Shown here piece after piece: positions 1-7,970 of a DNA stretch of 7,970 nt. The first letter of the stretch is position 1; every line of letters begins with the position of its first letter. This DNA is from a virus (lineage: Duplodnaviria; Heunggongvirae; Uroviricota; Caudoviricetes), in IMG/VR virus record IMGVR_UViG_2698536392_000014, positions 1 through 7,970 of that record; one strand, 5' to 3'. The translations under genes and the position numbers were made by a program. The notes under the pieces are model-generated. The model saw only the letters and a program-made list of their open reading frames with translations. It had not been told where the DNA came from and made no database searches.

Positions 1-378
1 CGCATGACAAAAGAGTTGACAGGTAAAACTCTGTTTATGGCGCTCAGGAGCCAGCGCCCACCTGCCGGGATAATCCACCACTCTGATCGAGGTTCACCGT
101 ACTGCGCATACGATTACCTGGTCATACAGGAGCAGTTTGGTCTGAGAACATCAATGTCGCGTAAAGGTAACTGTTACGACAACGCTCCGATGGAAAGCTT
201 CTGGGGAACGCTGAAAAATGAGAGCCTGAGCCACTATCGTTTTAATAACCGGGATGAAGCCATCTCAGTAATACGGGAATACATTGAGATTTTCTACAAT
301 CGTCAGCGTCGTCACTCTCGTCTGGGGAATATCTCCCCGGCAGCCTTCAGGGAAAAATATCATCAGATGGCTGCTTAA
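1..378 (+). CDS. IS3-family transposase OrfB (DDE integrase core), C-terminal 125 codons; 5' end outside window
   Basis: Frame is open from position 1 to TAA at 376-378. The translation (...HHSDRGSPYCAYDY...SMSRKGNCYDNAPMESFWGTLKNE...FYNRQRRHSRLGNISP...) matches, from memory, the C-terminal catalytic region of IS3-group OrfB proteins (compare IS3 InsF ...HTDRGGQYCSADY...[24 protein letters not shown]...YNRWRRHS...). Confidence 0.85.
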   Translation, partial: RMTKELTGKTLFMALRSQRPPAGIIHHSDRGSPYCAYDYLVIQEQFGLRTSMSRKGNCYDNAPMESFWGTLKNESLSHYRFNNRDEAISVIREYIEIFYNRQRRHSRLGNISPAAFREKYHQMAA

Positions 379-395
379 AAAAAGAACAAATGGTA

Positions 396-421
396 GTGTC
401 CGCTATTGCCAGTACACCTCA
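396..421. repeat. putative right terminal inverted repeat of the IS3-family element
   Basis: GTGTCCGCTATTGCCAGTACACCTCA resembles the inverse of the IS3 left end as I recall it (..CAGCAATAGTGGACAC.., terminal TGA/TCA); about 19 of 26 positions agree. The IS3 reference is recalled, not looked up. Confidence 0.4.
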
Positions 422-1482
422 AGAGTGTCAGTTGCGCTCTGATTTGTTCCTTCATCTTCAAACACGCCCTTTGTAGTCAGGTATTCAGTAATGTATTTGT
501 TCAGTGCCACAGGGTCTTTGTGAATGTCGATCGGACGTTCACGGACAAGGCCAAAAATAGTCTGGCGGTCGTAGCGAAGGGCATCAGGCTGTTTGCGCAT
601 TGATGCCGAGATACGCTTCCAGTCTTCGCGGCCGTTGTCGATAACTTCATTTTTTGCCCAGCGATGGATGCTGCCGTCAATGTTTCCGGCATCCACATCA
701 CCAGGCCAGAGAGCGTAGGCCAGTTCGTCATCCAGTGTTTTCCATGTCTGCTTGTATTCGCGATGAATGGCAGCAATGACCGGGCTGATTTTTCCTGTTG
801 AATTTTCAGTGTACTGTTGATTGGCTCTGGCGCGGGCGAGATCAACAACAGACGTGTATTTTCCGGTTTCCTTGCGTTCACCTTCGCGACGTTTTTTCCA
901 GATGCGCATTTCTGTCTGAATTTCGGGCCATTTGGCACCAGGCTTACATTTATGCTTAACCCACCCGATAGCATGCAGCTTAAGCTCCGGATACATGGCG
1001 TTAACTTCTGGCATTTTCATCAACGCTTCAACGATATGTCCGTCGAATGTTGCCATGTCTTCCTGCAACAATTCCTGCGCGCTAATCACCATATCAACGG
1101 TGATGTTTTCACATGTGTCGAACTTAACCATGACAGCGTTCTGTACTTCAGGGGCCAGCTTGTCAAAAGCGACGTTCATCGGATCTGATTCAGTCTCAAC
1201 CGGGACAAAGGAAGCAGACTCCTCATCCCAGCGGTTTTCCTGCATATATTCAGCATCCCAGGAATAGAGGGCAGGGCGGGGTATACCGGGTTTATCCTCG
1301 CAAACAAGAAATTTATAAGCGCAGTCCTGAGCAGCCGGATAATGCTCCAGGAATTGCCAGTGAAATTTTGCGCGGGCGCGACGTTCATCACCGGCTTCAA
1401 TGGCAGTGGCTACAGCGACTGCACCTTCTTCCTTTATTGCCTGTTCGTCCGGAATGGCGGCGCAAATAAAGACTTTACTCAT
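403..1482 (-). CDS. hypothetical protein, 359 aa; 3' end probably truncated or replaced by the IS insertion
   Basis: Long ORF with ATG at 1482 and a GAGG Shine-Dalgarno 9 nt upstream. Several shorter ORFs on both strands inside it look like shadow ORFs. Its last ~6 codons and TAG stop (403-421) lie inside the putative IS terminal repeat. No catalytic motif recognised by eye. Confidence 0.7.
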   Translation of the reverse strand: MSKVFICAAIPDEQAIKEEGAVAVATAIEAGDERRARAKFHWQFLEHYPAAQDCAYKFLVCEDKPGIPRPALYSWDAEYMQENRWDEESASFVPVETESDPMNVAFDKLAPEVQNAVMVKFDTCENITVDMVISAQELLQEDMATFDGHIVEALMKMPEVNAMYPELKLHAIGWVKHKCKPGAKWPEIQTEMRIWKKRREGERKETGKYTSVVDLARARANQQYTENSTGKISPVIAAIHREYKQTWKTLDDELAYALWPGDVDAGNIDGSIHRWAKNEVIDNGREDWKRISASMRKQPDALRYDRQTIFGLVRERPIDIHKDPVALNKYITEYLTTKGVFEDEGTNQSATDTLEVYWQ

Positions 1483-1761
1483 TTTGTTTTACCTCATTAC
1501 AGATTTCAGAGTGAACGAATCCCTGCCATTGCTGGCATTTTTAATCCGTTGGTATGGTGTTAATATGGCTGGAGGGTTATCCAGCCGGTGTTTCGTTATT
1601 CAGGTACAGCGATACTTTTTTTACCGGGAGGCATTCACCAGAAATTTTTTGCTCGTCTCTTGCCTGGAGGCAGGATTCTTTACTGGCATAAATTCCGGTA
1701 ATCACATTCTGTGATTCACCCGTTATAAGAAAAACCGTCATCATCAGTGCAAATGCTGAAG

Positions 1762-1950
1762 TTATTGACGTTCTCCGAAAATACCAAGTTCAAGAAGAGC
1801 AATTCGGGAAAGTATGGAATTATCATTGAGCAGATAAGGCTCATATTTCCTCATATTAATGGCATCTTCAGTAAACTCCCGGTTACTGAGCAGAACACCA
1901 ATATCAAAACAACCTTCAGACGTATTAACGTTTGGTAATAACGTTTCCAT
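1762..1950 (-). CDS. small hypothetical protein, 62 aa (METLLPNVNTSEGCFDIGV...)
   Basis: The ORF track gives 1762..2055 from a GTG; an internal ATG at 1950 is preceded by GAGGA 7 nt upstream and is the more plausible start. Same strand as neighbouring leftward genes. No family recognised. Confidence 0.4.
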   Translation of the reverse strand: METLLPNVNTSEGCFDIGVLLSNREFTEDAINMRKYEPYLLNDNSILSRIALLELGIFGERQ

Positions 1951-2055
1951 TATCGCGTCCTCAACAATGAATTTTGTGATGCGGTGCCTGGTGCCTCCAG
2001 GTGACGTTAACCAGTTAACAATTAACGCCGGATACAGAGAATCCACCCATAACAC

Positions 2056-2518
2056 TGTTTTTGGTTTTAACTGTTCCGCGTGCGCTGAGCCGCATTCACC
2101 GCATCACAAAATTCACTTTAAAAAGGGCGGCAGAGCAGCCACGGAGTAAAACTGATACCGCCAAACGTCACCAGAAAATTGATAACAGAGGGCGTTGCAG
2201 CGGGGTTGTCACTTAAGCGTATGGTCAACCTGACAACCCTGTGTCCTCAACGGGGGAAGGGATAACCCCGCCATACTTACCGCCGCGCCATTTCGCGGAT
2301 TGCCACAACCGGAAGCGCACGGTCGACGAAAATTTAACGACAGGCTATCTATGAACCAGCTACCTCGCCGTGCGCTTTCGCGTTATGGTCTGACTTTTCA
2401 GGGAAATATCCTTTCAGTAAACTGTCAGTGCCGGATGCTCACCCGTGTCCGGCGCACGCACTCCACCTCACCCGTGGAGAACTCCTTAATTACCAACCTT
2501 AGCTTCGTTGGTTAGCTA
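2056..2518. other. ORF-free, hairpin-rich region (about 460 bp) inside the leftward gene arm
   Basis: No ORF with a credible start on the minus strand (checked by hand in three frames). Contains an 11-bp stem (2201-2211 with 2231-2241), two adjacent stem-loops each carrying CTCACCCGTG (2438-2447, 2467-2476) and a 6-bp stem-loop at 2492-2512. Confidence 0.4.
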
Positions 2519-2737
2519 TTAACGCGGGTATGTAATCATTCTGGCAATGCTTAATGCCGCTGCTTTTTCCAGATTGGTGATATCCTGCTCCAGAGCGGAC
2601 AGATTTTCAGCCTGCTTAGCCCTGGCTTCATTGGCCCATTTCAGCTCCTGCGCTGCATTAATTTTCTGGTGCATCCACTCATAAAGTTCATCATCGGTAT
2701 AGTCTGGCGCGATGATGACGGGTTCTCGTTTCTGCAT
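2519..2737 (-). CDS. small hypothetical protein, 72 aa
   Basis: ATG at 2737 preceded by a consensus AAGGAG Shine-Dalgarno 5 nt upstream (reverse complement of CTCCTT at 2743-2748); TAA stop at 2519-2521. Predicted helical and charged. No family recognised. Confidence 0.55.
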   Translation of the reverse strand: MQKREPVIIAPDYTDDELYEWMHQKINAAQELKWANEARAKQAENLSALEQDITNLEKAAALSIARMITYPR

Positions 2738-2828
2738 GTCGGCTCCTTGTGGTTAGCGTTGCCTGCTTTTAACCACGTCAGGCGAGGTGGTATCCTTTGA
2801 GGGTCTGTTACTCGAGAGGAAATTGGTT

Positions 2829-3029
2829 ATGAATACAATCAAGTTTTCTTGCCCAGAATGTGGCGGCGAAGTCTTTGACACATCCTTTAAACCGCATGGC
2901 TCTGACAGTTTCGCGGGAGCCATCTGCAAAAATTGTGGTCACCTTGTAACTGAAGATGAGTCCTCGCAGTTTGATGACGAAATCGTTGACAATATCTTCG
3001 GTGCACTCACCAGAGACTTTCTGAAGTAA
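2829..3029 (+). CDS. small zinc-ribbon protein, 66 aa (CPEC-x22-CKNC)
   Basis: ATG at 2829 with GAGAGGA 8 nt upstream; two CxxC pairs with zinc-ribbon spacing; acidic C-terminal tail; no rare codons. Overlapped codon-on-codon by an antisense ORF (2808..3164), treated here as its shadow. Confidence 0.5.
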   Translation: MNTIKFSCPECGGEVFDTSFKPHGSDSFAGAICKNCGHLVTEDESSQFDDEIVDNIFGALTRDFLK

Positions 3030-3078
3030 AGGCGCATACCGCTTAGTTACCGCTCTGATAATTCTTACCTGTCCGGCA

Positions 3079-3116
3079 ATGGCGCTGATATCAATATAAA
3101 GCGCCATCGCTGTTTC
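3079..3116 (+). terminator. candidate terminator hairpin downstream of the zinc-ribbon gene
   Basis: Perfect 8-bp stem ATGGCGCT (3079-3086) with AGCGCCAT (3100-3107), 13-nt loop, followed by a T-rich tract CGCTGTTTCTTT. The long loop makes it atypical. Confidence 0.35.
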
Positions 3117-3342
3117 TTTGCTGATCCCAGGATGCCTTCCATTCTGATGTTTGACTTCGCCCACTGAGAAATCCTCTGTTTCCCCTTAACGCCGGGGTAG
3201 CGGAACAAAAAACCTGCTGCATAGTTAAACGTAATCCCCGCCGTCATGTTCATACGCCTCAGGCTGGCTACTTAACCCCTGACCACAGCCGGGTAACTCG
3301 AAGTATTGCCCTGCATTCTGTGAAGCGGGGTGGGTTGCAATG

Positions 3343-3371
3343 AATGTAAGAATATTTAGTTTTGTCGTCAA
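3343..3371 (-). promoter_or_regulatory. candidate leftward sigma70 promoter (PL-like) just downstream of the repressor gene
   Basis: On the minus strand: TTGACG (3371..3366), 17-bp spacer, TACATT (3348..3343). Would drive transcription away from the repressor 3' end into the leftward arm. Confidence 0.4.
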
Positions 3372-3372
3372 G

Positions 3373-3395
3373 TTGAATATAAATATTTTTAAGAT
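3373..3395. repeat. copy 1 of the motif TTGAATATAAAT(ATTTTTAAGAT), candidate operator or UP-like element
   Basis: First 12 bp are identical to 4102-4113; lies immediately upstream of the leftward -35. Confidence 0.45.
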
Positions 3396-3440
3396 AAAAG
3401 GCCGACAAAGCCGACCTCTGATTACAGGGCAAAGCGGGAG

Positions 3441-4085
3441 CTAGAGGCTGAACTGAACACCTTTTGCTACAGCAACGATGTTACATTCCGGTGTAAGTAA
3501 GGATGATTGATAGCGTGGGTTAAGGGGGGCTAAGTACACGAGCTTTCCATCAATAACTAATTTTTTTATAGTCATGGATGGTTCGTTTGTGAGTGGATCT
3601 GGGACTATTACTGCGACGATGCTACCATTTTTATATTTTTCGCCAGGCCTCATGATCACTGTGGCTCCAACTGGAATGCTTGGGGATCCTGATGGATTGT
3701 GCATAGTATCATCAGGCATTGAAACGGCAAAATCTCCCTCCTTGACATCAAAGAATGTGGTGATCCTGTCGACATTTCCCATAGTTTTCTCTCCTTTTAA
3801 TATTAGGAAAGAAATCGCTTCTCCCCAAGAAAGGTATGGGATTTGGGTACCTGGATTTTTCTGCACAAGGGATGATTCAGGTGATGATACTCCATACAGG
3901 AGATAGGACTCAGTAGTGCCTAGTGCTAGGGCTAATTTACTAAGAGCTTTGCTACCTGGTTCGTTTAGATCTTTCTCCCAGTATCCTATTGTTACCCCAG
4001 TTACGCCAGAAAGCTTGCCAAGTTCAACTTGGGTCAGACCTTTGTCTTTTCTGAGTTTCTTAAGCCTAATGCCAAGGCTTTCCAT
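3441..4085 (-). CDS. LexA/cI-type phage repressor (N-terminal HTH, C-terminal S24 autopeptidase domain), 214 aa
   Basis: N-terminal HTH (..KGLTQVELGKLSGVTGVTIGYWE..); C-terminal S24-like region with candidate catalytic Ser (..FAVSMPDD..) and Lys (..TIKKLVIDGKLVYLAP..); GGGAG Shine-Dalgarno 6 nt before ATG at 4085; divergent from a Cro-like gene. Confidence 0.9.
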   Translation of the reverse strand: MESLGIRLKKLRKDKGLTQVELGKLSGVTGVTIGYWEKDLNEPGSKALSKLALALGTTESYLLYGVSSPESSLVQKNPGTQIPYLSWGEAISFLILKGEKTMGNVDRITTFFDVKEGDFAVSMPDDTMHNPSGSPSIPVGATVIMRPGEKYKNGSIVAVIVPDPLTNEPSMTIKKLVIDGKLVYLAPLNPRYQSSLLTPECNIVAVAKGVQFSL

Positions 4086-4101
4086 TATTTTCTCCCGCGA
4101 A

Positions 4102-4123
4102 TTGAATATAAATTATTTTAGAT
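4102..4123. repeat. copy 2 of the motif TTGAATATAAAT(TATTTTAGAT) in the repressor/cro intergenic region
   Basis: Same 12-bp core as 3373-3384, same orientation. Its reverse complement contains a TATATT -10-like hexamer suitable for a PRM-like repressor promoter. Sits just upstream of the rightward -35. Confidence 0.45.
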
Positions 4124-4127
4124 TGTA

Positions 4128-4156
4128 TTGACCTAAAAAAAATTACCCTTTAATCT
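4128..4156 (+). promoter_or_regulatory. candidate rightward sigma70 promoter (PR-like) for the cro-like operon
   Basis: TTGACC (4128-4133), 17-bp spacer, TAATCT (4151-4156); about 30 nt upstream of the cro-like ATG, which has an AAGGGGAG Shine-Dalgarno. An imperfect inverted repeat ATTTTAG...CTAAAA spans the -35. Confidence 0.5.
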
Positions 4157-4184
4157 AAAAATACTTAGTTTTAAGGGGAGCGAA

Positions 4185-4412
4185 ATGCGAGTTGATGAAC
4201 TTGTCCAGTTTTTTGGTTCTGTCCAAAGAGTCGCTGATTTTTATGGGGTAACCCGAGAAGCTATATACATGTGGCGTAAGCGTCCCGGCGAAATAGTTCC
4301 CAAGGGGAGGGCTGCTGAAGCAGTTGCATACTCCAAGGGAAAATTATCGTTGAACCCAGAACTTTACAAAAAGAAGGATAACACCTCGAACGAAAGGAAA
4401 AATGATTCATGA
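4185..4412 (+). CDS. Cro-like HTH regulator (P22 Cro / YdaS-like), 75 aa
   Basis: Divergent from the repressor; strong Shine-Dalgarno; the HTH segment (..FGSVQRVADFYGVTREAIYMWRK..) resembles, from memory, the P22 Cro / YdaS pattern (..FGTQRAVAKALGISDAAVSQWK..). Confidence 0.8.
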   Translation: MRVDELVQFFGSVQRVADFYGVTREAIYMWRKRPGEIVPKGRAAEAVAYSKGKLSLNPELYKKKDNTSNERKNDS

Positions 4413-4705
4413 AAATCAAACATGAACACATCCGCATGGCGATGAATGCCTGGGCATATCCTGATGGTGAGAAAGTGCCTGCAGCTGAAATAGCCCGGAC
4501 TTATTTCGAACTTGGGATGACGTTCCCGGAACTGTACGACGACAGCCATCCGGAAGCCCTGGCCCGTAATACCCAGAAAATTTTCCGCTGGGTGGAGAAG
4601 GATACGCCTGATGCGGTTGAAAAAATTCAGGCGCTGTTACCGGCGATCGAAAAGGCGATGCCGCCTTTGCTGGTGGCCCGTATGCGCAGTCACAGTTCTG
4701 AATAA
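4409..4705 (+). CDS. YdaT-like / CII-analogue small regulator, 98 aa
   Basis: Start overlaps the cro-like stop (ATGA at 4409-4412), with AAAGGA 10 nt upstream. The N-terminus MKIKHEHI... matches my recollection of YdaT-family proteins that follow Cro-like genes in Rac-type prophages. The family assignment is recalled, not verified. Confidence 0.7.
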   Translation: MKIKHEHIRMAMNAWAYPDGEKVPAAEIARTYFELGMTFPELYDDSHPEALARNTQKIFRWVEKDTPDAVEKIQALLPAIEKAMPPLLVARMRSHSSE

Positions 4706-4855
4706 ATGGCTGAACTGCTGAATGATGCACATCCGGAATGGAGTTTAAGAACCTGTGAAAGACGCATTGAGCATTGGCTAAAGGTGGCAGAATTTATTTT
4801 GTACAAACCAATGGTTATGGCTTCTGGTATAGAGAAAAAAGTTATTGCTTTTTGA
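4706..4855 (+). CDS. possible small ORF, 49 aa, coupled to the preceding gene (TAAATG)
   Basis: ATG directly follows the TAA of the YdaT-like gene and ends before the intrinsic terminator; no Shine-Dalgarno of its own. Below the 60-aa cutoff of the ORF track; found by hand translation. Confidence 0.3.
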   Translation: MAELLNDAHPEWSLRTCERRIEHWLKVAEFILYKPMVMASGIEKKVIAF

Positions 4856-4933
4856 CGTAAAAACTGCTTCAATTCCGGTAAGCTTCGCAAAGCTGTACCG
4901 CGAGGCGAATAGCAGACATGGACATTTGAAAGA

Positions 4934-4955
4934 GCCCGCTTTTTGCGGGTTTTTT
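4934..4955 (+). terminator. intrinsic terminator ending the cro-like operon
   Basis: GC stem CCCGC (4935-4939) with GCGGG (4945-4949), 5-nt loop, then six T (4950-4955). Confidence 0.55.
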
Positions 4956-5077
4956 ATGACTGAAAAACGGCACGGGGCGTTAAATGCGCTGGTGGTTGCG
5001 AATACCGGTCTTTCTGCTTACTGGCTTTTTGGACAAGAATTATTGGTATGTCACGTTAACCAAAAGGGAAAAAAGAC

Positions 5078-5275
5078 ATGCTAAAACAGCAGGATATGAC
5101 AGAAACCGCCAGAGTGGTGTTTAATGAATTAAGCGTTACCGACCCGGCGACAGTCGGGGAGATTGCGCAGAATACTTACCTTTCACGCGAACGCTGCCAG
5201 TTAATACTGACCCAGCTTGTTATGGCGGGTCTGGCAGACTATCAGTTCGGTTGTTACAGACGCCTTCCGCAGTGA
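5078..5275 (+). CDS. small winged-helix-like DNA-binding protein, 65 aa; possibly a remnant N-terminal domain of an O-type replication initiator
   Basis: ATG at 5078 with AGGGA 7 nt upstream. The segment ..TVGEIAQNTYLSRERCQLILTQLVMAGL.. resembles, from memory, the lambda O N-terminal region (..LSEITKLPVKRCNEAKLELVRMNII..). Stop is embedded in a terminator. Confidence 0.5.
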   Translation: MLKQQDMTETARVVFNELSVTDPATVGEIAQNTYLSRERCQLILTQLVMAGLADYQFGCYRRLPQ

Positions 5276-5285
5276 AGGCTTTTTT
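5262..5285 (+). terminator. intrinsic terminator overlapping the stop of the 65-aa ORF
   Basis: Stem GCCTTC (5262-5267) with GAAGGC (5274-5279), 6-nt loop, then six T (5280-5285). Confidence 0.6.
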
Positions 5286-5302
5286 ATTTGTGGTAAATGG
5301 GC

Positions 5303-5333
5303 GGCTGGTGGGTGTTAGGGGCACCTACCAGCC
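5303..5333 (+). other. very stable stem-loop in the methyltransferase leader
   Basis: GGCTGGTGGGTG (5303-5314) pairs with CACCTACCAGCC (5322-5333): 12 bp including one G-U pair, 7-nt loop TTAGGGG, no following T tract. Two further hairpins follow at 5375-5393 and 5398-5416. Confidence 0.45.
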
Positions 5334-5425
5334 ATCTGCTCATGCGTTGGGTTCACAAGCAAACCTCAGGCCCACTGCTTTGCGCAAAAGCAGAATGAGC
5401 CTATCAGAGACAGGCTTAATGATCC

Positions 5426-6502
5426 ATGCTTAATACTGTAAAAATATCCAGTTGTGAGTTAATCAACGCTGATTGCCTGGAATTTATCCAGACCTTACCG
5501 GAAAACTCTGTCGATCTGATAGTCACAGACCCGCCATACTTTAAAGTGAAGCCCGAGGGCTGGGATAACCAGTGGAAGGGCGACGATGATTACCTGAAGT
5601 GGCTGGACCAGTGTCTGGTGCAGTTCTGGCGGGTGCTGAAACCTGCCGGAAGTCTTTACCTGTTCTGTGGCCATCGCCTGGCATCTGACATTGAAATCAT
5701 GATGCGTGAACGCTTCAATGTGCTGAACCATATTATCTGGGCGAAGCCGTCCGGACGCTGGAACGGGTGCAACAAGGAAAGCCTGCGGGCGTATTTTCCG
5801 GCCACAGAACGCATTCTGTTCGCGGAACATTATCAGGGGCCGTATCGTCCGAAAGATGATGGCGATGAGGCGAAGGGCAGGGCACTGAAACAGCATGTGA
5901 TGGCCCCGCTGATTTCTTACTTTCGTGATGCGCGTGCTGCTCTTGGGATAACGGCAAAACAGATTGCAGATGCCACAGGAAAGAAAAACATGGTGTCGCA
6001 CTGGTTCAGTGCCAGTCAGTGGCAGCTACCGAACGAAAGCGATTATCTGAAATTACAGTCGCTGTTTGCCCGGGTGGCAGAAGAGAAACATCAGCGGGGA
6101 GAACTGGAAAAGTCCCATTACCAACTGGTCAGCACATACAGTGAGCTGAACCGGCAGTATATGGAACTGCTGAGTGAATATAAGCATCTGCGGCGGTATT
6201 TCGGTGTGACGGTGCAGGTGCCGTACACCGATGTGTGGACGCATAAACCGGTGCAGTACTATCCAGGGAAACATCCGTGCGAAAAACCGGCAGAAATGCT
6301 GCGGCAGATAATCTGCGCGAGCAGTCGTCCGGGTGACCTGGTGGCGGATTTTTTCATGGGTTCTGGCTCAACCATAAAAGCAGCTATGGAGCTCGGGCGT
6401 CGTGCAACTGGTGTTGAACTGGAGGCAGAACGTTTTGCGCAGACCGTTAAGGAGATTAGTCACATCCTTACATGCTCAATTGATGACGGGAAGGATGGAT
6501 AA
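5426..6502 (+). CDS. DNA methyltransferase, beta-class amino-MTase (N6-adenine or N4-cytosine), 358 aa, apparently orphan
   Basis: Motif IV DPPY near the N-terminus (..VDLIVTDPPYF..) and AdoMet motif I near the C-terminus (..DLVADFFMGSGSTIKAA..); order IV-I defines the beta class, with a central target-recognition region containing an HTH-like stretch. No restriction endonuclease gene adjacent. ATG at 5426 has no obvious Shine-Dalgarno. Confidence 0.9.
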   Translation: MLNTVKISSCELINADCLEFIQTLPENSVDLIVTDPPYFKVKPEGWDNQWKGDDDYLKWLDQCLVQFWRVLKPAGSLYLFCGHRLASDIEIMMRERFNVLNHIIWAKPSGRWNGCNKESLRAYFPATERILFAEHYQGPYRPKDDGDEAKGRALKQHVMAPLISYFRDARAALGITAKQIADATGKKNMVSHWFSASQWQLPNESDYLKLQSLFARVAEEKHQRGELEKSHYQLVSTYSELNRQYMELLSEYKHLRRYFGVTVQVPYTDVWTHKPVQYYPGKHPCEKPAEMLRQIICASSRPGDLVADFFMGSGSTIKAAMELGRRATGVELEAERFAQTVKEISHILTCSIDDGKDG

Positions 6503-6613
6503 AGATATGGTCAGTTCAGGCTGTGAAGCAAGTAGACAGATAAGGCTGCAATAAAAACTGACAATAGTAAAATAGCTTTTTCCCAGGTAGTCATGAATAC
6601 GATCTCTTAAAGC

Positions 6614-6633
6614 GCCCGCTGATACCAGCGGGC
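6614..6633. other. GC-rich hairpin downstream of the methyltransferase gene
   Basis: Perfect 8-bp stem GCCCGCTG with CAGCGGGC and loop ATAC. Only a short T run on the minus-strand side and none on the plus side, so a weak terminator at best. Confidence 0.3.
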
Positions 6634-7271
6634 AATACATACTGGCATTAATGTTAAGTTCAGGGATAATTCATCGTATTTTGTGGTACGACGCTATCAA
6701 TATTAATAAACAGTATTTTTCATGTAAAATTTCTGTTTTTTGATCTGATTCTCGTTTCCTGGGTTATGATGTTGTTGTGAACCATGCTGTTGAATGATAA
6801 TGTTCGGGTATAAAATTGTTGCTGATATGTAGCGCAGTGAGCAGGTGGTATTTCTGTTGCTGAGTGTACGGATACAGTGCTTCCCTCCCTCAGCGGGGGG
6901 GCAGGTGTGCTGTGGTTTTAGAGACACCGGAAACGAGAATGATGCGGGTTTGCTGGTGCCGGGATAGAGTCGCCGGAGGTCATGACATAGAGCAAAAAAG
7001 GAATGTGCATGCAAATACACACCTCTTCGGAGATCTCTTCTTTATATGGATGAGCCTCAAGGTCAATAGTTTATCTGTTATGTATTCATATGTTGTTACT
7101 TATATAATCCATACGGGCATATCATCAGTACACACATACTATTATGGCATTTTATTTTTGTTTTAACTGAATTCCCGGGGCACTCTTTTTGATTTCTGAT
7201 AAGGAACCAGAATTTTCTGTTAAATGGTGTCACGTTGTAAATGGTTAATGGAAGCAGCTTATTATCCATAA

Positions 7272-7295
7272 TCACACCTGAGTTAACAGGTGTGA
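7272..7295. promoter_or_regulatory. perfect 9-bp inverted repeat TCACACCTG-AGTTAA-CAGGTGTGA, candidate binding site for a dimeric regulator
   Basis: Exact palindrome arms with a 6-bp spacer, inside an ORF-poor AT-rich region about 430 bp upstream of the next gene start. Confidence 0.35.
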
Positions 7296-7722
7296 GAATA
7301 CTTCCGGGTGGCAGGAACACATCTGACTGATACCAGATTATCAACTTTATTTTACACCATACAGTTGAAAACGTTATTCCGCTTGATGGGCATATCACTG
7401 TGTCAATAACTATCCATTCCATCTTTTAACCTTCTCGGTACACATTGCTTTCGATTGTTTTGCTAAAAATCATAGTCAATAAATCAGTGTAACTCATTGA
7501 AAAAGATCGTCTTCTTTGTCTTCCTGGGGTTTTCTTTTCTAATTTTGTATCACTTTGGTTCAAGTTGTTTCATTTTTTTGTAATACAAATTAGCAGGATG
7601 AGCGGGAATATAAAAAAATCGGATGTTTTTGTAATGGATATTATTTTTTGTAAAATAATGTATTTTTATTTAAATCTCTATCAGAAAAGAATTTATTGTT
7701 CCTTTATATGGTGGAAAAGGTC

Positions 7723-7970
7723 ATGGTATTTAAACACTACGATGTGGTCAGGGCGGCGTCGCCGTCAGATCTTGCGGAAAAGCTGACACAAAAACTGAAG
7801 GAGGGGTGGCAGCCATTTGGCAGCCCGGTGGCCATCACGCCTTATACTCTGATGCAGGCCATTGCTGCGGAAGGTGATGTCACCCCACCTGTGTTGGTGA
7901 AGCCGTCGGATGGAGAAGGCACAGTAATCAGCGCCACCAGAGACCCGGAGTATTACTTTGTTGTGGTTCT
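7723..7970 (+). CDS. hypothetical protein, 5' partial (first 82 codons; continues beyond window)
   Basis: Not in the ORF track because no stop is reached. ATG at 7723 (alternative in-frame ATG at 7708) preceded by AAAGG; translation MVFKHYDVVRAASPSDLAEKLTQKLKEGWQPFGSPVAITPYTLMQAIAAEGDV... is open to the window end, with a clear shift to higher GC and typical codon usage after the AT-rich spacer. Confidence 0.5.
   Translation, partial: MVFKHYDVVRAASPSDLAEKLTQKLKEGWQPFGSPVAITPYTLMQAIAAEGDVTPPVLVKPSDGEGTVISATRDPEYYFVVV

Follow-up and report, generated by a model that had tools for sequence, protein, structure and literature searches.

In lambdoid phages such as lambda, 82 and 21, and likewise in SfV and N15, the gene for the antiterminator Q is followed by a short terminated leader (pR'-tR') and then by the late genes. 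The com-mom operon of phage Mu combines a toxic late DNA-modification gene with a small gene directly upstream of it, and the start of translation is occluded by structure in the messenger RNA (mRNA); Com itself carries a zinc finger, and a lone hairpin serves as the mom operator. At the Gifsy-1 locus antQ-isrK-orf45-anrP, a Q-like gene, a short terminated RNA, a small open reading frame (ORF) and a downstream gene follow one another, and translation of the downstream gene depends on RNA refolding (PMC4825925). PMC5778455 describes M.EcoGII as a prophage-encoded enzyme of E. coli O104:H4 that methylates adenine in any sequence context; it reports no expression in normal growth and a deleterious effect of constitutive expression, and the family is reported to be silent in lysogens and harmful if expressed. 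Here we set beside these systems a locus in a stretch of 7,970 nucleotides (nt) from a virus of the Caudoviricetes (IMG/VR record IMGVR_UViG_2698536392_000014, positions 1 to 7,970; hereafter the window), in which a DNA methyltransferase gene is preceded by a small gene and, between the two, by a structured leader RNA.

Read along the plus strand, positions 4706-6502 of the window carry the remnant of a Q-type antiterminator gene, a late leader, a first terminator, a gene for a 65-amino-acid (aa) protein, a second terminator, the structured RNA and the gene for a 358-aa methyltransferase, and this order is native and found widely. We estimate at roughly four in five the probability that the segment is the late-operon head of a Rac-like lambdoid prophage, which a deletion has put after cro and a truncated ydaT gene. 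The most interesting content of its 4956-6502 interval is the RNA, a conserved structured leader at 5290-5425 (plus strand) that a covariance model matches at 5278-5431 with 124.7 bits. With a probability of about 0.45, in our estimate, this leader belongs to a class of regulatory RNAs, not described before, that specifically serves the DNA-modification genes with which late operons open in temperate phages of the Enterobacterales: a conserved three-way-junction domain would be combined with a helix re-tailored for each start codon, and translation would be permitted only on a lytic-phase signal. An earlier note on this stretch, hereafter the original prediction, had reported both ORFs and both terminators, and all are present (ORFs at 5078-5275 and 5426-6502, terminators at 4929-4955 and 5262-5289).

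Across genera, the spacer before the methyltransferase gene is nearly constant in length (134-153 nt), and its substitutions can be seen to compensate one another. When IMG/VR was first searched with a methyltransferase alignment, near-identical loci alone were returned; the diversity came from a query with the N15 enzyme, and the covariance model was built from 61 diverse sequences. Two folds were found. In Fold A, a hairpin comes after a three-way junction: P1 pairs 5298-5302 with 5370-5374, P2 pairs 5303-5314 with 5322-5333, P3 pairs 5335-5343 with 5355-5363, and the hairpin P4 pairs 5376-5380 with 5387-5392. Fold B was obtained with RNAalifold and, for the window sequence, as the fold of lowest energy (-61.1 kcal/mol, z = -3.7). 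In this fold the 5' strand of P1 pairs with the 5' strand of P3 (P1', 5297-5302/5338-5343), while positions 5351-5360 pair with the 11 nt directly before the AUG (long-range helix, 5351-5360/5414-5424), and a third helix joins 5368-5371 to 5399-5402.

Both folds are recorded in the pattern of substitutions. Over the pairs of Fold A, 85.1% of the alignment cells are paired, compared with 73.1% after shuffling and at most 41% when the partners are slid; both sides have changed in 25 of the 32 pairs, and the observed values were reached in 0 of 500 shuffles. P2 alone occurs as 48 distinct complementary arm pairs. The long-range helix is left unpaired in the model structure and shows changes on both sides in eight of its nine pairs, and exchanges between GC and AU support the 5368-5371/5399-5402 helix of Fold B. 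In alignment A5, P3 (columns 61-69/83-91) and the long-range helix (columns 79-88/149-159) share columns 83-88, and both covary; column 86 covaries with each of its alternative partners, reading C-G-C in 26 sequences and U-A-U in 25. The leader is a conserved, covarying RNA whose two folds exclude each other, and in one of them the start region is covered. When each fold was forced on the window sequence, the sequestering long-range helix was favoured over Fold A by about 7 kcal/mol. A further candidate, P5 as a fixed-column helix (A5 columns 131-135/147-151), was rejected: it was poorly supported, at 52.7% paired, and its register varies by lineage.

By direct reading of the sequence, no Shine-Dalgarno motif is evident before the methyltransferase ATG. 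A GATC (Dam) site lies at 5421-5424, 1-2 nt before this ATG, and is conserved in most copies from the Enterobacteriaceae; the loop of P3 reads GGUC or GAUC and is able to pair with it. The leader RNA appears to be undescribed. Neither for the window leader nor for five variants of it did any Rfam 15 family score higher than noise, and nothing relevant to the core sequence or motif of the RNA was found in the literature searched, with the limit that published small RNA (sRNA) catalogues of enterohaemorrhagic E. coli were not cross-checked by genome coordinate. The passages of PMC5778455 that were consulted make no mention of an upstream leader RNA or small ORF.

Of 91 loci searched with the covariance model, 87 have exactly one copy of the leader, which lies on the coding strand and abuts the methyltransferase ATG; no further matches occur elsewhere in 433 kb. 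A pattern scan of IMG/VR that was independent of the methyltransferase returned 120 loci. An M.EcoGII-like ATG follows the motif by 52-55 nt, nearly always 53-54, in 96 of these; two further copies reach contig ends, and 13 are chance matches rejected by the covariance model. The remaining nine are genuine, lower-scoring copies (31-60 bits) that retain the 5' domain and precede a different gene. Three of them stand before a C5-cytosine methylase gene (L202, L263 and L289; PF00145, 1.5e-41), two before a gene for a Mom-family protein (L225 and L287; PF25680, 7e-71), three before genes for ParB_N-domain proteins (L245, L247 and L255; PF02195 at 24.3-25.6 bits, below the cut-off of 26.3) and one before a holin gene (L279). 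In the copies before other gene families, the 3' side of P3 is GGUCAUGAG. Since the genes of L287, L202, L247 and L245 begin with AUGACC, AUGACU or GUGACU, the predicted long-range helix (GGUCAU) would cover the start codon in each. The best predicted duplex of L255 falls short of the start, and L279 has no such pairing.

Among deposited phage genomes, blastn located the leader in 58, which include Stx2a, Stx2c and Stx2d converting phages, phiP27, cdtI, mEp460, SfV and the Citrobacter rodentium phage phiNP; in these records no annotated feature lies under the leader match except the methyltransferase gene, and it is to the late region that they assign this gene, downstream of the leader. The leader occurs in N15-like phages as well. 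By megablast, the leader is present in 1,651 of 5,426 complete E. coli genomes (about 30%), with up to six copies per genome. Two loci have lost the association with the enzyme. In L003 (22302-22650), an AraC-type helix-turn-helix gene and transfer RNA (tRNA) genes take the place of the methyltransferase gene behind the small ORF and the 5' half of the leader; as only the 5' half is kept, a recombination breakpoint lies inside the RNA. In L023 the RNA is kept and the methyltransferase gene lost. In three further loci (L168, L169 and L175, at about 1090-1200), M.EcoGII-like genes come after a terminator and a GC-rich leader of another kind, to which the model gives no match; judged by eye, that leader could form an analogous three-way junction (GCCCG...CGGGC around two hairpins).

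The gene downstream of the leader (5426-6502, plus strand) encodes a full-length beta-class N6-adenine DNA methyltransferase of 358 aa, with a match to Pfam family PF01555 (N6_N4_Mtase) at 1.9e-42. DPPY at residues 35-38 precedes FFMGSGS at residues 309-315, which is the beta-class motif order, and both motifs are invariant in an alignment of nine homologues; the enzyme class had been named correctly in the original prediction. Comparison of the sequences makes its membership in the M.EcoGII/M.EcoGI family well supported: 318 of 350 residues are identical to those of M.EcoGII (about 91% identity, over 349 residues; E = 0). Because the M.EcoGII reference sequence was machine-read from the supplement of PMC11551740, a few of the differences may be reading errors. 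The enzyme is 82-92% identical to those of Stx2a and Stx2c phages and to SfV orf48, and 57% identical to N15 gene 52. Its nearest solved structures are the beta-class methyltransferases 8urk, M.RsrI and CcrM. It is also an orphan, as had been proposed: no nuclease gene is adjacent in the annotated record, where its neighbours are the small ORF and, on the opposite strand, iraM. Orphan state, prophage location and motif order are shared with M.EcoGII and M.EcoGI. M.EcoGII differs in its length of 349 aa and in its C-terminal tail, and the antiterminator is deleted at the present locus.

Upstream of the small gene lies a leader of the late type. The region from the Q remnant to terminator 1 (4856-4928, plus strand) has a hairpin around 4882-4906, and its position matches the pR'-tR' leaders annotated in SfV and N15. 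Terminator 1 (4929-4957, plus strand) is an intrinsic, tR'-like terminator in which the 3' arm of the hairpin (4929-4955) runs into U6. It was missed by a consensus terminator scan and picked up by folding against shuffled sequences (-16.2 kcal/mol, z = -4.5, 0 of 200 shuffles as stable). A strong terminator about 100 nt after Q, at a position conserved for three Q families, is a feature of the lambdoid leaders; the SfV annotation places a terminator there, and after each of the three Q families we found a hairpin and U-run at that position, each with a different stem sequence. Terminator 2 (5262-5289, plus strand) lies over the stop of the small ORF. Its 6-bp GC-rich stem (5262-5279) is followed by UUUUUUAUUU, giving a U6AU3 tail, and the TGA (5273-5275) sits in the loop and 3' arm; its energy alone is unremarkable, with z about -1. 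The hairpin is retained with changed arms in most Enterobacteriaceae, with a variable U-run, and is absent in Proteus and Providencia; N15-type and other loci have a canonical terminator at this position, directly before the RNA. Judged as sequence features, both sites qualify as intrinsic terminators.

The two terminators had been thought to insulate each gene of a new module. They do exist, as the Q-dependent barriers that are usual in late leaders and not as insulators. With them, the leader is a variant of the lambdoid late leader that Q acts on, from which it differs in three ways: its two terminators stand in series on either side of a protein gene, a structured RNA follows the second of them, and its Q is of the DUF1133 type and truncated. 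Over the whole window, 13 terminator-like sites were counted against 8.0 +/- 3.3 expected, which is no significant enrichment, and a scan site at 4988-5009 was rejected as no better than shuffles. A conserved 5' untranslated region of the small ORF (5010-5077, plus strand; CTTRCTGG...CAGARTTAT..GTATGTCAC) is kept, in the alignment, across loci with three different Q families, and could be an internal promoter or another RNA element. The leader upstream of it also invites comparison with Gifsy-1, where the IsrK sRNA lies downstream of antQ, in the same position as 4882-4955 of the window. An isrK-like match at 4882-4955 (plus strand), with a 5' hairpin and terminator layout, is weak (19.8 bits against a gathering score of 50). 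The downstream gene of Gifsy-1 is an antirepressor, not a methylase, and its orf45, unlike the 65-aa ORF, shows no conservation as a protein. We regard Gifsy-1 as a positional analogue, and the isrK match as a lead only.

The antiterminator gene itself is represented in the window by a 3' remnant of 49 codons (4706-4855, plus strand), which matches DUF1133 at positions 136-174 of 176 (7e-18). Only codons 136-184 of the Q-type gene are left, and a full-length Q-like protein is absent. A full-length DUF1133 relative matches PHROG 753, 'anti-termination protein Q-like' (5e-81), and passes the threshold of PF06530 (Phage_antitermQ, 5e-8), and DUF1133 (PF06576) carries the Q annotation in Rac-type phages. 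DUF1133 is the Q-type antiterminator of these phages, and therefore the small ORF and the methyltransferase gene sit at the place from which late operons start. In SfV, where both terminators are annotated, in PPyecE and in N15, one likewise finds Q, terminator, small ORF, methyltransferase gene and lysis genes in this order. Among species-level loci of the Enterobacterales, 31 of 34 have the small ORF followed about 150 nt later by the methyltransferase gene, and the Q genes of these loci fall into three different families. The two genes are the normal first genes after Q in thousands of lambdoid prophages.

Their proximity to the immunity genes in the window results from a deletion, which we mapped base by base against the intact relatives L002 and L003. 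Homology to the ydaT gene of L003 stops at 4704, and homology to DUF1133 resumes at 4704/4705, at the internal codon Met136; the joint (4704-4705) has a 1-nt overlap, and 7,371 bp are missing relative to L003, whose cro and ydaT are 99.8% identical to the window copies. The missing DNA holds the C-terminus of ydaT, a DnaT-like (O-like) initiator gene, the gene for replication protein P, nin-type and several other small genes, hok, DUF968, rusA and 135 of the 184 codons of DUF1133. The joint is carried by only 2 of the 5,426 complete E. coli genomes. The truncated ydaT/cII-like gene (4409-4705, plus strand) has 98 codons, compared with 141 in intact L003; its Pfam match to YdaT_toxin covers only profile positions 1-45 of 92, and it belongs to PHROG 163 (cII-like). 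PGAP treats both the ydaT piece, which lacks its C-terminus, and the DUF1133 piece as pseudogenes. That the cII-like ORF is a truncated ydaT gene, joined directly to a Q remnant, had escaped the original prediction.

The small gene (5078-5275, plus strand) encodes a conserved 65-aa protein of phrog_331 (2.8e-37), a group whose function label is 'unknown'. It has 333 database homologues and is full length within a family of 63-67 aa. Identity across the Enterobacteriaceae is 81-98%, and a core, RCQLILTQL.MAGL, is invariant as far as Proteus and Plesiomonas. Within the Enterobacteriaceae, the proportion of nonsynonymous differences (pN) is 0.09-0.16 and that of synonymous differences (pS) 0.6-0.9, the synonymous sites being near saturation; with pN far below pS, the ORF is a real gene under purifying selection. 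Its only Pfam match is a sub-threshold one to the TrmB winged helix (17.3 bits against a cut-off of 25.6), and some sources name it a TrmB family regulator. Weak profile matches were obtained to SgrR_N for the Proteus homologue and to PCI for N15 gp51, and a profile search of PDB sequences gave a best E of 0.12. The protein is possibly a winged helix, with which these sub-threshold profile matches are consistent. In profile comparison, N15 gp51 (75 aa) looks like a remote homologue (hhalign E 2.9e-4, probability 40%, 56 columns; also detected by hmmsearch). In N15 (L005), gp51 (2006-2233) lies upstream of the annotated late promoter and terminator (2276-2364), the leader RNA (2366-2500) comes directly after these, and gene 52 follows. 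The annotated start of N15 gene 52 appears to be too far downstream. The 65-aa protein may be a nucleic-acid-binding accessory of this module.

Put together with the regulation of lambdoid late operons through Q, pR' and tR', and with PMC5778455, these features suggest how the locus would work. Late in infection by an intact phage, RNA polymerase modified by Q would start from a pR'-type promoter after the Q gene and pass both terminators; polymerase that Q had not modified would halt at terminators 1 and 2. The non-specific adenine methylase would then be made late, and progeny DNA would be methylated against host restriction. In a lysogen, the toxic enzyme would be kept off by repression of Q, by the two terminators and by the leader masking a start that lacks a Shine-Dalgarno motif, the leader RNA thereby acting as an extra translational lock on toxic DNA-modification genes. 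The lytic-phase signal that opens the lock could be, for example, a metabolite, a protein of the phage or of the host, or the kinetics of folding under Q-modified RNA polymerase. As Q is destroyed in the present prophage, the methyltransferase could be expressed only if transcription from pR leaked through the terminators once the SOS response had cleaved the repressor, or if another prophage supplied a matching Q.

Several observations weigh against this account. The regulatory steps are read from the sequence, and non-specific methylation by the 358-aa enzyme is assumed from its 91% identity to M.EcoGII. A consensus promoter scan of 4856-4928 returned no site with at least 9 of 12 matches and no good sigma-70 match. 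The counts for P1-P4 come from an alignment that had been fitted to the model, and the cells of the covariation count are not independent events. Loci of the N15 type, and some others, favour Fold A by 7-14 kcal/mol, and their long-range pairing is weak; as the balance of the folds differs by lineage, masking of the start may not be universal, and the junction domain may have another primary role. The 65-aa protein also gave a low-confidence AlphaFold2 model of three helices (predicted local distance difference test 55.9 alone and 59.7 with 28 homologues), for which Foldseek against the PDB returned nothing at E <= 0.001 (best E = 4.4).

Other explanations share parts of this evidence. The small protein could be a dedicated regulator of the methyltransferase that binds DNA, like a C protein of a restriction-modification system, or activates translation by binding the leader RNA, like Com of Mu. 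The two genes are coupled at a distance of about 150 nt in 31 of the 34 species loci, the protein is under purifying selection with its invariant core, its apparent distant homologue gp51 stands beside the same RNA and methyltransferase in N15, and the leader masks a start without a Shine-Dalgarno motif, as in com-mom. The resemblance to com-mom extends to a Mom-family gene among the genes that carry the present leader. Several phage types, however, have the RNA and the methyltransferase gene with no detectable homologue of the small ORF, and by tblastn the C5, Mom and ParB_N contexts are without it; the N15 homologue lies upstream of the late promoter, L003 keeps the small ORF without a methyltransferase, and the fold is of low confidence. 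The protein also lacks the four cysteines of the Com zinc finger, the RNA is a multi-helix structure of 130-150 nt, and no sequence relationship exists; with neither zinc-finger cysteines nor a similar RNA, the locus is not a member of the com-mom system. We consider a dedicated regulator doubtful, although it deserves to be kept in view. An action of the RNA on transcription or on the fate of the mRNA, as an antiterminator that modifies the polymerase, like put of HK022, or as an element for processing or stability of the late transcript, would agree with its constant place immediately behind a terminator at the start of the late operon, with the L279 copy directly before lysis genes, and with the unmasked start in lineages that strongly favour Fold A. 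Such a role would not call for a fixed 52-55 nt (nearly always 53-54) to the start codon in 96 loci, for complementarity to the start region re-created for four unrelated genes, or for the loss of the 3' half of the RNA where the methyltransferase was replaced (L003); put, moreover, consists of two stem-loops, an architecture different from that of the leader. We hold this role to be improbable.

The structure of the leader could also be that of a metabolite riboswitch, for instance one for S-adenosylmethionine or S-adenosylhomocysteine: the nucleotides at its three-way junction are conserved, it has two alternative folds, and its expression platform can pair with the start region. Riboswitches and leaders that sequester the ribosome-binding site likewise combine a junction domain with exclusive helices, one of them over the start, and precede non-homologous genes of related function; here these are mostly methylases dependent on S-adenosylmethionine. 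Against this, the RNA also precedes a Mom-family gene and genes for ParB_N proteins, which are not known S-adenosylmethionine methylases, as well as one holin gene. It resembles no riboswitch class in Rfam, and the relative stability of its folds varies strongly between lineages, in which it differs from those platforms. A metabolite riboswitch strikes us as quite improbable. The original prediction held that the replication module had been replaced by a new two-gene module, with the 65-aa ORF as the leftover N-terminus of an O-type initiator, and the ORF does follow cro and a cII-like gene, the position of O in lambda, and has weak winged-helix-like matches. It has no match to a replication-initiator family in a Pfam scan (E <= 0.01) or in NCBIfam, and is a full-length member of the 63-67-aa family. 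Its place in intact relatives is behind Q, and the O-like and P genes lie about 7 kb upstream of it, so that the 7,371-bp deletion explains why it and the methyltransferase gene now stand beside cro and ydaT. On this comparison of gene order the replacement is refuted, and we leave it hardly any weight. Equally little, or less, can be said for conservation of 5290-5425 as a protein-coding ORF (e.g., 5251-5433, 60 aa, which spans the spacer) or as a DNA-level site such as the conserved Dam site just before the ATG. Length differences of the spacer (134-153 nt) are not multiples of three, compensatory substitutions occur in four helices, and the model matches one strand only, which leaves next to no chance for it.

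The surroundings are those of a decaying prophage: the window is 100% identical to a degraded prophage, riddled with insertion sequences, in E. coli 2013C-4830, a strain with three copies of the leader. At its left end, the 3' end of an IS3-family transposase gene (4-378, plus strand; IS600-like in the annotated record) abuts an exonuclease gene without its C-terminus (403-1482, minus strand), and this junction marks a further decay event in the same prophage. The sRNA DicF (2125-2176, minus strand) scores 75 bits in Rfam against a gathering score of 48, and a sub-threshold STnc100-like match lies at 1918-2127 (minus strand; 37.7 bits against 47); together with ydfC, they fit the dicB-ydfC region of a Qin/Rac-type prophage. 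An intact cI/LexA-type repressor gene (3441-4085, minus strand; HTH_3 8e-12, Peptidase_S24 1e-10; labelled LexA family protein in the annotated record) and a cro-type regulator (4185-4412, plus strand; Pfam P22_Cro 2.6e-9; annotated as Cro/CI family) are kept. No tRNA was found in the window by ARAGORN; related phages have tRNAs in the corresponding region. Downstream of the methyltransferase gene, 6503-7970 is AT-rich (GC 0.33-0.44) and holds the gene for the anti-adaptor iraM (7096-7422, minus strand). No terminator follows the methyltransferase gene of the window, unlike in SfV and N15, and in the annotated record a sialate-esterase-type pseudogene and then lysis genes lie beyond iraM.

Most of what the original prediction had picked out is ordinary, since the prophage is a decayed one whose deletion could be mapped, and its enzyme comes from the M.EcoGII family, which had been characterised before. 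The original prediction was largely right in what it observed, including a replication-defective remnant with an immunity switch and a methyltransferase, since repressor and cro are kept and the replication genes are deleted, and the comparison with intact relatives that it proposed did identify what had been lost; its interpretation was largely wrong. If the leader gates translation, this would explain how phages can safely carry a promiscuous, host-toxic methylase. The leader would then be a new RNA switch that lends itself to experiments, and it may be relevant when M.EcoGII-type enzymes are expressed heterologously.

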